Origin: Escherichia phage MS2
Length of the DNA: 3,569 nt
Strand: one strand, 5' to 3'
Sequence record: NC_001417.2
This document shows positions 1 to 3,569 of the stretch, one piece after another. Below the pieces are notes generated by a model. That model did not search any database, was not told the origin of the DNA, and saw only the letters and a program-made list of their open reading frames with translations. The stretch's first letter is position 1. Each line of letters starts with the position of its first letter. A program made the position numbers and the translations under genes.

Positions 1-4
1 GGGT

Positions 5-24
5 GGGACCCCTTTCGGGGTCCT
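5..24 (+). promoter_or_regulatory. 5'-terminal stable hairpin (RNA structure)
   Basis: Read directly: 6-12 GGACCCC pairs with 17-23 GGGGUCC (seven Watson-Crick pairs), closed by G5-U24 wobble, loop UUUC at 13-16. Matches the known stable 5' hairpin of MS2-like RNA. Confidence 0.8.
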
Positions 25-115
25 GCTCAACTTCCTGTCGAGCTAATGCCATTTTTAATGTCTTTAGCGAGACGCTACCATGGCTATCGCTGTAGGTAGC
101 CGGAATTCCATTCCT

Positions 116-122
116 AGGAGGT
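116..122 (+). promoter_or_regulatory. Shine-Dalgarno sequence of the maturation gene (AGGAGGU)
   Basis: AGGAGGU at 116-122, 7 nt upstream of the GUG start at 130-132. Confidence 0.85.
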
Positions 123-129
123 TTGACCT

Positions 130-1311
130 GTGCGAGCTTTTAGTACCCTTGATAGGGAGAACGAGACCTTCGTCCCCTCCGTTCGCGTTTACGCGGACGG
201 TGAGACTGAAGATAACTCATTCTCTTTAAAATATCGTTCGAACTGGACTCCCGGTCGTTTTAACTCGACTGGGGCCAAAACGAAACAGTGGCACTACCCC
301 TCTCCGTATTCACGGGGGGCGTTAAGTGTCACATCGATAGATCAAGGTGCCTACAAGCGAAGTGGGTCATCGTGGGGTCGCCCGTACGAGGAGAAAGCCG
401 GTTTCGGCTTCTCCCTCGACGCACGCTCCTGCTACAGCCTCTTCCCTGTAAGCCAAAACTTGACTTACATCGAAGTGCCGCAGAACGTTGCGAACCGGGC
501 GTCGACCGAAGTCCTGCAAAAGGTCACCCAGGGTAATTTTAACCTTGGTGTTGCTTTAGCAGAGGCCAGGTCGACAGCCTCACAACTCGCGACGCAAACC
601 ATTGCGCTCGTGAAGGCGTACACTGCCGCTCGTCGCGGTAATTGGCGCCAGGCGCTCCGCTACCTTGCCCTAAACGAAGATCGAAAGTTTCGATCAAAAC
701 ACGTGGCCGGCAGGTGGTTGGAGTTGCAGTTCGGTTGGTTACCACTAATGAGTGATATCCAGGGTGCATATGAGATGCTTACGAAGGTTCACCTTCAAGA
801 GTTTCTTCCTATGAGAGCCGTACGTCAGGTCGGTACTAACATCAAGTTAGATGGCCGTCTGTCGTATCCAGCTGCAAACTTCCAGACAACGTGCAACATA
901 TCGCGACGTATCGTGATATGGTTTTACATAAACGATGCACGTTTGGCATGGTTGTCGTCTCTAGGTATCTTGAACCCACTAGGTATAGTGTGGGAAAAGG
1001 TGCCTTTCTCATTCGTTGTCGACTGGCTCCTACCTGTAGGTAACATGCTCGAGGGCCTTACGGCCCCCGTGGGATGCTCCTACATGTCAGGAACAGTTAC
1101 TGACGTAATAACGGGTGAGTCCATCATAAGCGTTGACGCTCCCTACGGGTGGACTGTGGAGAGACAGGGCACTGCTAAGGCCCAAATCTCAGCCATGCAT
1201 CGAGGGGTACAATCCGTATGGCCAACAACTGGCGCGTACGTAAAGTCTCCTTTCTCGATGGTCCATACCTTAGATGCGTTAGCATTAATCAGGCAACGGC
1301 TCTCTAGATAG
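130..1311 (+). CDS. mat: Maturation (A / assembly) protein; binds genomic RNA and the F-pilus
   Basis: 393-aa ORF starting with GUG (MRAFSTLDRENETFVPS...) preceded by a strong SD. UAG stop at 1309-1311. Translation recognised as MS2 A protein. First gene in the canonical levivirus order. Confidence 0.96.
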   Translation: MRAFSTLDRENETFVPSVRVYADGETEDNSFSLKYRSNWTPGRFNSTGAKTKQWHYPSPYSRGALSVTSIDQGAYKRSGSSWGRPYEEKAGFGFSLDARSCYSLFPVSQNLTYIEVPQNVANRASTEVLQKVTQGNFNLGVALAEARSTASQLATQTIALVKAYTAARRGNWRQALRYLALNEDRKFRSKHVAGRWLELQFGWLPLMSDIQGAYEMLTKVHLQEFLPMRAVRQVGTNIKLDGRLSYPAANFQTTCNISRRIVIWFYINDARLAWLSSLGILNPLGIVWEKVPFSFVVDWLLPVGNMLEGLTAPVGCSYMSGTVTDVITGESIISVDAPYGWTVERQGTAKAQISAMHRGVQSVWPTTGAYVKSPFSMVHTLDALALIRQRLSR

Positions 1312-1322
1312 AGCCCTCAACC

Positions 1323-1326
1323 GGAG
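1323..1326 (+). promoter_or_regulatory. Shine-Dalgarno-like GGAG for the coat gene
   Basis: GGAG at 1323-1326, 8 nt upstream of the coat AUG at 1335, within the 23-nt mat-coat intergenic region (1312-1334). Confidence 0.7.
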
Positions 1327-1334
1327 TTTGAAGC

Positions 1335-1727
1335 ATGGCTTCTAACTTTACTCAGTTCGTTCTCGTCGACAATGGCGGAACTGGCGACGTGACTGTCGCC
1401 CCAAGCAACTTCGCTAACGGGGTCGCTGAATGGATCAGCTCTAACTCGCGTTCACAGGCTTACAAAGTAACCTGTAGCGTTCGTCAGAGCTCTGCGCAGA
1501 ATCGCAAATACACCATCAAAGTCGAGGTGCCTAAAGTGGCAACCCAGACTGTTGGTGGTGTAGAGCTTCCTGTAGCCGCATGGCGTTCGTACTTAAATAT
1601 GGAACTAACCATTCCAATTTTCGCTACGAATTCCGACTGCGAGCTTATTGTTAAGGCAATGCAAGGTCTCCTAAAAGATGGAAACCCGATTCCCTCAGCA
1701 ATCGCAGCAAACTCCGGCATCTACTAA
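1335..1727 (+). CDS. cp: Coat (capsid) protein; also the translational repressor of the replicase gene
   Basis: 130-aa ORF MASNFTQFVLVDNGGTGDVTVAPSNFANGVAEWISSNSRSQAYK...SGIY, recognised as MS2 coat protein. AUG at 1335. UAA stop at 1725-1727 immediately followed by in-frame UAG at 1728-1730. Confidence 0.98.
   Translation: MASNFTQFVLVDNGGTGDVTVAPSNFANGVAEWISSNSRSQAYKVTCSVRQSSAQNRKYTIKVEVPKVATQTVGGVELPVAAWRSYLNMELTIPIFATNSDCELIVKAMQGLLKDGNPIPSAIAANSGIY
1427..1433 (+). promoter_or_regulatory. 5' arm of the long-range 'Min Jou' interaction inside the coat gene
   Basis: UGAAUGG at 1427-1433 is the exact reverse complement of CCAUUCA at 1738-1744, just upstream of the replicase RBS. This is the known pairing that keeps the replicase start closed until ribosomes traverse the coat gene. 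Confidence 0.85.
1665..1686 (+). promoter_or_regulatory. Candidate hairpin sequestering the lysis start codon
   Basis: GGUCUCC at 1665-1671 can pair with GGAAACC at 1680-1686 (six of seven pairs, one internal mismatch). The loop region holds the lysis AUG at 1678-1680. Consistent with known coupling of lysis translation to coat termination. Fold not computed. Confidence 0.4.
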
Positions 1728-1905
1728 TAGACGCCGGCCATTCAAACATGAGGATTACCCATGTCGAAGACAACAAAGAAGTTCAACTCTTTATGTATTG
1801 ATCTTCCTCGCGATCTTTCTCTCGAAATTTACCAATCAATTGCTTCTGTCGCTACTGGAAGCGGTGATCCGCACAGTGACGACTTTACAGCAATTGCTTA
1901 CTTAA
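1678..1905 (+). CDS. lys: Lysis protein L (single-gene lysis protein)
   Basis: 75-aa ORF in a different frame from both coat and replicase, overlapping the coat 3' end (1678-1727) and the replicase 5' end (1761-1905). Basic N-terminal half (RRRPFKHEDYPCRRQQR) followed by a hydrophobic segment (LYVLIFLAIFLSKF...LLLSLLEAVI) containing Leu-Ser dipeptides. Translation recognised as MS2 L. Confidence 0.93.
   Translation: METRFPQQSQQTPASTNRRRPFKHEDYPCRRQQRSSTLYVLIFLAIFLSKFTNQLLLSLLEAVIRTVTTLQQLLT
1738..1744 (+). promoter_or_regulatory. 3' arm of the 'Min Jou' long-range interaction
   Basis: CCAUUCA at 1738-1744, perfect complement of 1427-1433, immediately 5' of the operator hairpin. Confidence 0.85.
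1746..1764 (+). promoter_or_regulatory. Translational operator (TR) hairpin: coat-protein binding site, replicase RBS and packaging signal
   Basis: ACAUGAGGAUUACCCAUGU read directly. Lower stem 1746-1750 with 1760-1764, bulged A at 1751, upper stem GG 1752-1753 with CC 1758-1759, loop AUUA 1754-1757. Contains the replicase SD (GAGGA) and AUG (1761-1763). This is the textbook MS2 operator. Confidence 0.96.
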
Positions 1906-3398
1906 GGGACGAATTGCTCACAAAGCATCCGACCTTAGGTTCTGGTAATGACGAGGCGACCCGTCGTACCTTAGCTATCGCTAAGCTACGGGAGGCGAAT
2001 GGTGATCGCGGTCAGATAAATAGAGAAGGTTTCTTACATGACAAATCCTTGTCATGGGATCCGGATGTTTTACAAACCAGCATCCGTAGCCTTATTGGCA
2101 ACCTCCTCTCTGGCTACCGATCGTCGTTGTTTGGGCAATGCACGTTCTCCAACGGTGCTCCTATGGGGCACAAGTTGCAGGATGCAGCGCCTTACAAGAA
2201 GTTCGCTGAACAAGCAACCGTTACCCCCCGCGCTCTGAGAGCGGCTCTATTGGTCCGAGACCAATGTGCGCCGTGGATCAGACACGCGGTCCGCTATAAC
2301 GAGTCATATGAATTTAGGCTCGTTGTAGGGAACGGAGTGTTTACAGTTCCGAAGAATAATAAAATAGATCGGGCTGCCTGTAAGGAGCCTGATATGAATA
2401 TGTACCTCCAGAAAGGGGTCGGTGCTTTCATCAGACGCCGGCTCAAATCCGTTGGTATAGACCTGAATGATCAATCGATCAACCAGCGTCTGGCTCAGCA
2501 GGGCAGCGTAGATGGTTCGCTTGCGACGATAGACTTATCGTCTGCATCCGATTCCATCTCCGATCGCCTGGTGTGGAGTTTTCTCCCACCAGAGCTATAT
2601 TCATATCTCGATCGTATCCGCTCACACTACGGAATCGTAGATGGCGAGACGATACGATGGGAACTATTTTCCACAATGGGAAATGGGTTCACATTTGAGC
2701 TAGAGTCCATGATATTCTGGGCAATAGTCAAAGCGACCCAAATCCATTTTGGTAACGCCGGAACCATAGGCATCTACGGGGACGATATTATATGTCCCAG
2801 TGAGATTGCACCCCGTGTGCTAGAGGCACTTGCCTACTACGGTTTTAAACCGAATCTTCGTAAAACGTTCGTGTCCGGGCTCTTTCGCGAGAGCTGCGGC
2901 GCGCACTTTTACCGTGGTGTCGATGTCAAACCGTTTTACATCAAGAAACCTGTTGACAATCTCTTCGCCCTGATGCTGATATTAAATCGGCTACGGGGTT
3001 GGGGAGTTGTCGGAGGTATGTCAGATCCACGCCTCTATAAGGTGTGGGTACGGCTCTCCTCCCAGGTGCCTTCGATGTTCTTCGGTGGGACGGACCTCGC
3101 TGCCGACTACTACGTAGTCAGCCCGCCTACGGCAGTCTCGGTATACACCAAGACTCCGTACGGGCGGCTGCTCGCGGATACCCGTACCTCGGGTTTCCGT
3201 CTTGCTCGTATCGCTCGAGAACGCAAGTTCTTCAGCGAAAAGCACGACAGTGGTCGCTACATAGCGTGGTTCCATACTGGAGGTGAAATCACCGACAGCA
3301 TGAAGTCCGCCGGCGTGCGCGTTATACGCACTTCGGAGTGGCTAACGCCGGTTCCCACATTCCCTCAGGAGTGTGGGCCAGCGAGCTCTCCTCGGTAG
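1761..3398 (+). CDS. rep: RNA-dependent RNA polymerase (replicase beta subunit)
   Basis: 545-aa ORF MSKTTKKFNSLCIDLPRDLSLEIYQ... with the catalytic YGDD motif. AUG sits inside the operator hairpin. UAG stop at 3396-3398. Last gene in levivirus order. Confidence 0.98.
   Translation: MSKTTKKFNSLCIDLPRDLSLEIYQSIASVATGSGDPHSDDFTAIAYLRDELLTKHPTLGSGNDEATRRTLAIAKLREANGDRGQINREGFLHDKSLSWDPDVLQTSIRSLIGNLLSGYRSSLFGQCTFSNGAPMGHKLQDAAPYKKFAEQATVTPRALRAALLVRDQCAPWIRHAVRYNESYEFRLVVGNGVFTVPKNNKIDRAACKEPDMNMYLQKGVGAFIRRRLKSVGIDLNDQSINQRLAQQGSVDGSLATIDLSSASDSISDRLVWSFLPPELYSYLDRIRSHYGIVDGETIRWELFSTMGNGFTFELESMIFWAIVKATQIHFGNAGTIGIYGDDIICPSEIAPRVLEALAYYGFKPNLRKTFVSGLFRESCGAHFYRGVDVKPFYIKKPVDNLFALMLILNRLRGWGVVGGMSDPRLYKVWVRLSSQVPSMFFGGTDLAADYYVVSPPTAVSVYTKTPYGRLLADTRTSGFRLARIARERKFFSEKHDSGRYIAWFHTGGEITDSMKSAGVRVIRTSEWLTPVPTFPQECGPASSPR
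2775..2786 (+). other. Codons for the replicase catalytic YGDD motif (RdRp motif C)
   Basis: In-frame UAC GGG GAC GAU (Y-G-D-D) within ...TIGIYGDDIICPSE...; the GDD core is the hallmark of RNA-dependent RNA polymerases. Confidence 0.9.
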
Positions 3399-3430
3399 CT
3401 GACCGAGGGACCCCCGTAAACGGGGTGGGT

Positions 3431-3446
3431 GTGCTCGAAAGAGCAC
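3431..3446 (+). other. 3' UTR stem-loop with GAAA tetraloop
   Basis: GUGCUC (3431-3436), GAAA (3437-3440), GAGCAC (3441-3446): perfect 6-bp stem with a GNRA loop. Confidence 0.6.
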
Positions 3447-3467
3447 GGGTGCGAAAGCGGTCCGGCT

Positions 3468-3481
3468 CCACCGAAAGGTGG
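3468..3481 (+). other. 3' UTR stem-loop with GAAA tetraloop
   Basis: CCACC (3468-3472), GAAA (3473-3476), GGUGG (3477-3481): perfect 5-bp stem with a GNRA loop. Confidence 0.55.
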
Positions 3482-3483
3482 GC

Positions 3484-3495
3484 GGGCTTCGGCCC
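3484..3495 (+). other. 3' UTR stem-loop with UUCG tetraloop
   Basis: GGGC (3484-3487), UUCG (3488-3491), GCCC (3492-3495): 4-bp stem with a UNCG loop. Confidence 0.55.
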
Positions 3496-3538
3496 AGGGA
3501 CCTCCCCCTAAAGAGAGGACCCGGGATTCTCCCGATTT

Positions 3539-3564
3539 GGTAACTAGCTGCTTGGCTAGTTACC
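3539..3564 (+). other. 3'-terminal hairpin preceding the single-stranded ACCCA tail
   Basis: GGUAACUAGC (3539-3548) is the exact reverse complement of GCUAGUUACC (3555-3564), giving a perfect 10-bp stem with loop UGCUUG (3549-3554). Followed by ACCCA at 3565-3569. Confidence 0.8.
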
Positions 3565-3569
3565 ACCCA

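Follow-up and report, generated by a model that had tools for sequence, protein, structure and literature searches.

The genome of phage MS2, the best-known RNA phage, is represented by the reference record NC_001417.2/V00642 (Fiers et al. 1976), and MS2 was sequenced in the 1970s by direct reading of its RNA through RNase fingerprinting (PMC4727787). A 2026 preprint (PMC13596492) reported that the RefSeq replicase codons AAT-GGT-GAT-CGC-GGT stand where isolates carry AAT-GAT-CGG-TGC-GGT, and that MS2 rebuilt from RefSeq is non-infectious and gives no plaques, while correcting this cluster (GDR for DRC; cluster A below) restores them (section 3.3), which demonstrates experimentally that it is a lethal defect of RefSeq. 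The same work cites the VSV and TMV references as also being non-viable when rebuilt synthetically, and explains the MS2 discrepancy by drift and by composite curation of different studies; ordering errors are not its explanation. Modern laboratory MS2 is represented here by MK213795 (from E. coli ATCC 15597), GQ153927 ("MS2_ancestral"), and the ENA metagenome contigs L009 to L018, whose MS2 resembles a spike-in.

The window, which is the whole stretch of DNA that we analysed (3569 nt), contains a full-length MS2 genome in which all four genes and the operator hairpin are present and both termini are the true ones. Alignment of positions 1–3569 with 3569-nt MS2 records gave 99.0–99.5% identity with no indels (99.5% for GQ153927), the best full-length match remaining below 100% because NC_001417 and V00642 are absent from the "phages" collection used. 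The gene order mat, cp, overlapping lys, and rep on a plus strand of about 3.57 kb is that of MS2 (Emesvirus zinderi), the ORFs of all four genes coincide with the annotated MS2 coordinates, and each of the four proteins matched a Pfam family (E values from 1e-40 to 1e-209). The features are as follows.

1–3569, plus strand: complete MS2 (Emesvirus zinderi) plus-strand genome, from the full-length alignment, the protein matches, contigs L007/L008, and the RefSeq-specific codons.
1–129, plus strand: 5′ UTR with a 5′-terminal hairpin at 1–28 (−24.1 kcal/mol, z −3.5 by folding) and the true 5′ end GGGUGGG.
130–1311, plus strand: maturation (A) protein gene with a GTG start, 393 aa (PF03863, E 3e-207).
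1335–1727, plus strand: coat protein gene cp, 130 aa (PF01819, E 2e-68).
1678–1905, plus strand: overlapping lysis protein gene in the +1 frame, 75 aa (PF11125, E 2e-40).
1729–1764, plus strand: coat-protein operator hairpin spanning the replicase start codon (Rfam RF02359, 61.3 bits, E 3e-13).
1761–3398, plus strand: replicase beta-subunit gene (545 aa), whose product is the form peculiar to the reference, with G81-D82-R83 and P134 (PF03431, E 2e-209).
3399–3569, plus strand: 3′ UTR ending in ...ACCACCCA (folding z −5.2).

The operator hairpin, for which the gathering score of RF02359 is 40 bits, folds with the bulged A present at −6 kcal/mol. This hairpin acts both as translational repressor site and as packaging signal. 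A second Rfam match, RCNMV_TE_DR1, was dismissed as chance, its 18 bits (E 0.6) falling well short of the gathering score of 80.

In 5 unrelated metagenome contigs (L009, L010, L012, L013, and L016), the junction between foreign sequence and MS2 falls precisely at base 1 of the window (GGGTGGG...), and MS2 sequence terminates at base 3568/3569 (...ACCACCC[A]) in L009, L012, and L017. Both termini, 5′ GGGUGGG and 3′ ACCACCCA, are authentic, with support that is independent of the reference. The alignment, ORFs, Pfam and Rfam matches, and chimeric junctions bear out the preliminary description of the window as complete, end-exact MS2, and its statement that leviviruses have no DNA stage agrees with our searches for a DNA copy of MS2, which returned no match in 72,556 plasmids or in 5,426 complete E. 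coli genomes.

Comparison with the reference proteins revealed that the window replicase is identical, letter for letter, to CAA23991.1, YP_009640127.1, and P00585 (P00585.3), including N-GDR-G at residues 80–84 and P134. The mat, cp, and lys products are exact matches to CAA23988-90, and all four proteins match the YP_0096401xx entries. The RefSeq codons quoted in PMC13596492, which also quotes Rep P134S, correspond exactly to window positions 1999–2013, and the window sequence recurs without a mismatch (3569 of 3569 positions) in two RefSeq-like contigs from the Logan runs SRR34883053/54, L007 and L008. No difference was detected from NC_001417.2/V00642 in length (3569), termini, the four proteins, or the RefSeq-specific codons. 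These results very strongly suggest that the window is that MS2 reference record, the identity of the UTRs and synonymous sites being read through L007, L008, and the proteins. A "database record" had been among the origins listed beforehand, and it is the answer to which the exact protein matches and PMC13596492 lead. The record is a known one, and biologically nothing new is encoded in the window.

Compared with other MS2 sequences, the window differs at 19 sites grouped in five clusters, 17–18 of these sites being private depending on the comparison set.

2002–2007, plus strand: cluster A, window AAUG/G/UG/AUCG/CG, all others AAUG/AUCG/G/UG/CG.
2159–2160, plus strand: cluster B, window CUCCUAUG, elsewhere CCUCUAUG.
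2426–2429, plus strand: cluster C, window CUUUC, modern MS2 CCUUU (2425–2429).
2591, plus strand: site D, window A, all relatives U.
3451–3463, plus strand: cluster E, window GGG/UG/CG/AAAG/CG/G/UCCG/G, elsewhere GGG/UCCG/CG/AAAG/CG/G/UG/G.

These clustered sites, which are decisive for provenance, were overlooked in the preliminary description.

In cluster A, three RNase T1 products are reordered, giving replicase GDR in place of DRC at residues 81–83, and in cluster B the pyrimidine order is swapped within one T1 oligonucleotide, giving P134 in place of S134, a residue conserved as far as phage fr. Cluster E corresponds to an exchange of the T1 products UG and UCCG. Site D is synonymous (Pro277) and is the sole reference-private difference that is not an anagram. 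Cluster C consists of two synonymous sites, each of them variable among relatives, and could therefore be either an ordering error, as in B, or a real polymorphism. Modern laboratory MS2 shares the genome organisation and ends of the window, and the mat (AZS06103.1), cp, and lys proteins of MK213795 are identical to those of the window, whereas DRC81-83, S134, U2591, CCUUU at 2425–2429, and UCCG...UG at 3451–3463 set modern MS2 apart. The outgroups R17, M12, DL1, and fr (77% identity) all display (D/E)-R-C, S134, U2591, and the UCCG...UG order. Folding energy did not discriminate between the two versions of the 3′ UTR (MFE −76.4 vs −77.6 kcal/mol). The isolate 3′ UTR folds into a tidier row of tetraloop hairpins, an observation that alone is not evidence.

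We assessed the distribution of the two sets of alleles in public collections. None of the 47–104 deposited MS2-group records covering the sites carries the window alleles; in the "phages" collection, the window allele of cluster A was present in 0 records vs 47 for the isolate allele, and that of cluster E in 0 vs 104. The window allele of cluster A was also absent from viral contigs, and that of cluster E from the viral, metagenome, and genome collections (IMG/VR, JGI metagenomes, and GTDB genomes). The JGI and GTDB zeros carry little weight because both collections hold essentially no MS2; the isolate allele of cluster E, our positive control, was likewise found in none of the JGI metagenome or GTDB genome contigs. 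The informative negatives come from "phages", IMG/VR, and the ENA/Logan protein index. The isolate alleles were present in 10 of 10 ENA metagenome contigs and in the single IMG/VR contig, and by contig count the isolate version of the replicase occurs 943 times and the window version 2–5 times.

The exact window sequence was found in a number of Logan runs, among them SRR34883053 and SRR34883054; no paper mentioning the accession SRR34883053 was found in a literature search, and the reads with the window alleles are most likely simulated or synthetic. The complete match of L007 and L008 raises the alternative that the window itself is a contig of RefSeq-simulated or synthesised reads, or a cDNA or synthetic insert built from the reference (e.g. 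pJLC194, PMC13596492). We consider this very unlikely, since the Logan contigs are 3599 nt long, rotated, and circular with an A3569/G1 junction while the window is linear, ends exactly at G1 and A3569, bears no vector, promoter, or ribozyme flank, and found no match in the plasmid search; in either case its information content would be that of the reference record.

Analysis of the form of the differences revealed that 4 of the 5 clusters (A, B, C, and E) are anagrams, in which base composition and the RNase A product set are preserved and only the order is changed; in clusters A and E, the RNase T1 product set is preserved as well. The joint chance of composition preservation is 8.5e-6. Among the 19 sites, 14 of the 18 gaps between neighbours are of 3 nt or less (random maximum 5 in 200,000 placements), and 10 of the 19 window-specific changes are transitions, vs 69–100% between real isolates. 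Correcting the 19 sites leaves a single nucleotide of difference between the window and MK213795; with the sites set aside, it is 5 nt from GQ153927. The preliminary description had proposed that divergence from laboratory strains would support an environmental phage, a criterion that misleads here if the kind of divergence is left out of account, as the window does differ from every laboratory strain, but artefactually, and its corrected form is almost that of a laboratory isolate.

These properties bear on a second alternative, that the window is a genuine variant, either a 1970s Ghent stock or an environmental strain with the 19 alleles, recorded faithfully or as a composite of drifted populations. 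RNA phages mutate fast, the record was built over several years from different preparations (PMC13596492), and the synonymous differences of cluster C and site D may represent real polymorphisms. However, drift is scattered and rich in transitions, with few adjacent sites, and mutation would not be expected to yield runs of five and nine contiguous changes that leave composition and RNase catalogues intact (P about 8.5e-6). The residues concerned do not vary among relatives as far as phage fr, cluster A is lethal in the rebuilt genome (PMC13596492), and the window lacks the divergence typical of evolution, which would be scattered, transition-rich, and shared with another isolate or contig. 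We regard this alternative, too, as very unlikely.

The anagrams coincide with the blind spot of the RNase-fingerprint method, and we infer that they originated as ordering errors. The 17 anagram sites among the 19 are probably errors in the ordering of T1/RNase A products during direct RNA sequencing in the 1970s, and not the outcome of drift or composite curation. The literature-abstracted PRF entry likewise has GDR and P134; therefore, the anomalies are older than the RefSeq curation. The preprint (PMC13596492) contains no discussion of the anagram form of the MS2 errors, and a literature search for earlier papers naming the reference differences as sequencing errors returned nothing relevant. 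Unlike the VSV and TMV comparison, the MS2 reference errors have the form expected of pre-Sanger RNase-catalogue sequencing, namely digestion-product anagrams.

In the origin that we propose for the record, the sequencing method and the lethality are taken from the literature, and the record identity, the absence of the alleles from real data, the anagram property, and the outgroup states from our own comparisons. The sequence was put together in Fiers' laboratory in 1972–76 by direct RNA reading, in which labelled oligonucleotides from RNase digests were separated by two-dimensional fractionation. Such a catalogue did not always allow the digestion products to be ordered, which probably left the rearranged clusters in 4 of the 5 cases, and the replicase GDR for DRC makes the rebuilt sequence non-viable. 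The underlying biological sequence is ordinary laboratory MS2, and its appearance as DNA is notation only, U being written as T by databases. The earlier argument that a precise end-to-end copy is "therefore" reverse-transcribed does not follow for the window, as its error signature is that of direct RNA sequencing by RNase fingerprinting.

MS2 is, as had been pointed out, very common as a spike-in and contaminant. It is used as an internal quality control (PMC6206636), its exact coat protein sequence turned up in 4,996 index blocks of public assemblies, with at least 1000 contigs carrying it, and MS2 contigs often have 2,400–16,000x coverage and are fused to gut-bacterial genes, a TruSeq adapter, or the random-amplification primer GTTTCCCAGTCACGATA; MS2 fragments are also annotated within Vibrio, Salmonella, Klebsiella, and E. 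coli assemblies. Nevertheless, the suggestion that the window was itself assembled from reagent or spike-in MS2, added as internal control or carrier RNA to a clinical or environmental sample and read through an RT step, was excluded at the level of sequence because real-world MS2 carries other alleles: the isolate alleles occur in each of the 10 contigs from real data, in the one from IMG/VR, and in the 943 replicase contigs, window clusters A and E are missing from every collection scanned, and no propagated control stock could carry the window replicase allele because it is non-functional (PMC13596492). Laboratory-propagated or reagent MS2 was rejected on the same sites, as the window lacks the alleles of replicating MS2 at 2002–2007, 2159/60, 2591, and 3451–3463. 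Origins as cDNA, as the insert of a clone, as a spike-in assembly, or as an isolate from the environment are thus all rejected for the window.

About 19 sites separate the reference record from every real MS2. An origin in silico or by synthesis is indicated for any contig that matches NC_001417.2 completely, whereas these "variants" will always appear in real spike-in MS2. Because NC_001417.2 is in routine use as a mapping reference for quality control, variant calling, and the calling of RNA modifications (e.g. PMC6206636, 10.1101/2025.03.30.646209), clusters A–E will give false variants or modification signals in reads mapped to it, and four residues of UniProt P00585 are wrong. If the differences are indeed ordering errors, the first genome ever sequenced and the Swiss-Prot entry P00585 have for 50 years contained errors specific to the method, including a lethal one, and an "anagram test", searching for private differences that leave the nuclease product catalogues unchanged, could reveal similar errors in other RNA sequences from before 1977 that still serve as references.

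Full-length alignment of the window with the 3,569-nt MS2 records GQ153927, GQ153924, GQ153925, and EF204940 required no indels and gave 98.9-99.5% identity, and R17 likewise aligned end to end, with no indels, at 96.5%. The open reading frames coincide with the annotated MS2 coordinates, all four encoded proteins matched Pfam families (E 1e-40 to 1e-209), and Rfam recovered the operator hairpin (61 bits against a gathering score of 40), whose predicted fold is the classic bulged-A hairpin:

130-1311, + strand: maturation protein, ORF with GTG start (PF03863)
1335-1727, + strand: coat protein, ORF (PF01819)
1678-1905, + strand: lysis protein, ORF (PF11125)
1729-1764, + strand: MS2 operator hairpin (Rfam)
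1761-3398, + strand: replicase, ORF (PF03431)

Foreign sequence adjoins base 1 exactly in 5 metagenome contigs, and MS2 ends at 3568/3569 in 3. These results confirm that the window is a complete, end-exact MS2 genome, as the preliminary description had stated, and that its termini are real, being backed by reference-independent data. Searches of 72,556 plasmids and 5,426 complete E. coli genomes found no DNA copy, in keeping with a viral life cycle that lacks a DNA stage. The hairpin-rich 3′ UTR (3418-3513) also matched the Rfam family RCNMV_TE_DR1, but only weakly and below threshold (18 bits, gathering score 80; E 0.6), and we considered this match due to chance.

The phage collection held no record identical to the window, which is explained by its leaving out NC_001417 and V00642; the nearest record differed at 24 positions. 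Exact-sequence look-up showed that the replicase is letter for letter that of CAA23991.1 (EMBL V00642), YP_009640127.1 (RefSeq NC_001417), and Swiss-Prot P00585, and that CAA23988-90 are the other three proteins. We identify the window as the MS2 reference record, which is already known, and regard the finding as ordinary; among the origins proposed earlier, a database record was the right one, given these exact matches. The maturation, coat, and lysis proteins are also identical in the modern isolate MK213795, which leaves the replicase as the one unusual protein. P00585 (RDRP_BPMS2), a reviewed UniProt entry, thus carries GDR and P134, as against DRC and S134 in all isolates and relatives.

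Comparison with six full-length records identified 18 positions at which the window allele is absent from all six and a nineteenth, 2426, at which it is shared with R17 only. These 19 record-specific positions fall into five clusters:

2002-2007, + strand: cluster A
2159/2160, + strand: cluster B
2426/2429, + strand: cluster C
2591, + strand: site D
3451-3463, + strand: cluster E

Clusters A and B coincide exactly with the RefSeq/isolate differences given in a preprint (PMC13596492, September 2026, section 3.3), in which NC_001417.2 reads AAT-GGT-GAT-CGC-GGT (N-GDR-G) and isolates read AAT-GAT-CGG-TGC-GGT (N-DRC-G), and Rep residue 134 is S in isolates and P in RefSeq. In the experiment reported there, the RefSeq sequence yielded no phage, and correction of cluster A alone restored it.

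We scanned for the alleles with 31-mers that had cluster A or cluster E at their centre. In the phage collection the window versions were found in 0 records, against 47 and 104 records, respectively, for the other versions. Neither window allele was found in IMG/VR, whose only MS2 contig carries the isolate alleles. The isolate allele was present at all five clusters in 10 of 10 ENA metagenome contigs with the MS2 coat gene, and the isolate replicase sequence occurred in 943 contigs (NCBI, IMG, ENA, Logan) versus 2-5 for that of the window. JGI metagenome contigs and GTDB genomes contained neither allele, and these scans are therefore uninformative. R17, M12, DL1, and phage fr (77% nucleotide identity to the window) all have (D/E)-R-C at replicase residues 81-83, S134, U2591, and the UCCG...UG order in the 3′ UTR. 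Cluster C is exceptional and may be a real polymorphism, since its two sites are synonymous and differ among relatives.

MS2 serves as an internal control (PMC6206636), and an index of public assemblies lists its coat protein in 4,996 blocks. The ENA metagenome contigs L009-L018 (ERZ2184xxxx, ERZ27284499) are chimeric, with MS2 k-mer coverage of 2,400-16,000x; MS2 is fused to gut-bacterial genes, 16S rRNA (L017), internal MS2 pieces (L011, L013, L016), a TruSeq adapter (L018), and the random-amplification primer GTTTCCCAGTCACGATA (L014), as is typical when a spike-in is heavily over-represented in RT-based libraries. Deposited proteins P0006, P0009, P0021, and P0035 comprise MS2 replicase and maturation fragments and a full-length (130 aa) coat protein, labelled "hypothetical protein" or "coat protein" and assigned to Vibrio parahaemolyticus, Salmonella enterica, Klebsiella pneumoniae, and E. 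coli, indicating MS2 contamination in bacterial genome assemblies and in a WP_ RefSeq protein. The earlier caution about reagent origin is sound in general, MS2 being widespread in public assemblies, but does not apply to the window, whose alleles are absent from propagated MS2. Divergence from laboratory strains, proposed as a sign of a genuine environmental phage, would wrongly classify the window as environmental.

Six samples assembled in Logan (SRR34883053, SRR34883054, and sibling runs) yielded contigs identical to the window (3569/3569). Assembled as rotated circles of 3,599 nt (3569 + k-1, with k-1 = 30; L007 and L008, each 1-3599), these contigs join A3569, the last base of the record, directly to G1. 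In contrast, the head-to-tail junction in real data, seen in two independent ENA metagenome assemblies (L009 1-60; L012 7700-7730), joins ACCACCC to GGGTGGG (3568 to 1) and skips the terminal A; possible sources are ligation or template switching during library preparation, with MS2 at very high coverage, or the replicase. The Logan contigs match a non-viable record exactly and join its end to its start, which suggests that they derive from RefSeq through read simulation or DNA synthesis.

We then wrote the clusters as RNA and split them after G, as in RNase T1 cleavage. The set of T1 products is unchanged in clusters A (window AAUG/G/UG/AUCG/CG; others AAUG/AUCG/G/UG/CG) and E (window G/UG/CG/AAAG/CG/G/UCCG/G; others G/UCCG/CG/AAAG/CG/G/UG/G), and order alone differs. 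Clusters B (window CUCCUAUG; others CCUCUAUG) and C (window CUUUCAUCAG; others CCUUUAUCAG) differ only in pyrimidine order within one T1 product, with the same RNase A product set in both versions. Base composition is kept in all four clusters (joint probability 8.5e-6 under random substitution at the changed sites). Gaps between neighbouring differences were ≤3 nt in 14 of 18 cases (maximum of 5 in 200,000 random placements), and transitions made up 10 of the 19 changes, compared to 69-100% between genuine isolates (pooled 189/206, about 92%). Resetting the 19 sites leaves the window 1 synonymous base (in 3,526) away from MK213795 (host E. coli ATCC 15597) and 5 bases away from GQ153927.

The weakest inference of the RNase-fragment method is the order of short products inside one fragment. 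Fiers' laboratory sequenced both the coat gene and the whole genome of MS2 from RNase digestion fragments, which were fractionated in two dimensions by Sanger's method (PMC4727787). Fractionation of this type reads RNA directly, and we infer that the record-specific differences are ordering errors of that original RNase-fragment analysis. The claim that an end-exact copy must be reverse-transcribed fails for the window, because the record predates MS2 cDNA sequencing and carries a direct-RNA-sequencing type of error; the T in the window is notation. PMC13596492, which makes no mention of RNases or oligonucleotides, explains the discrepancy by drift and composite curation. The literature-abstracted PRF replicase entry (P0012) has GDR and P134, as in the window, which dates the anomalies to the original publication and not to later RefSeq curation. 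At about residue 171, the motif is QCAAW in this entry but QCAPW in the window and in all isolates. At least one alteration was thus made later, either a correction to the database record following publication or a transcription error by PRF. Nuclease-product anagrams provide a more specific account than the explanation in the current literature, and the provenance of the record is readable from the sequence itself.
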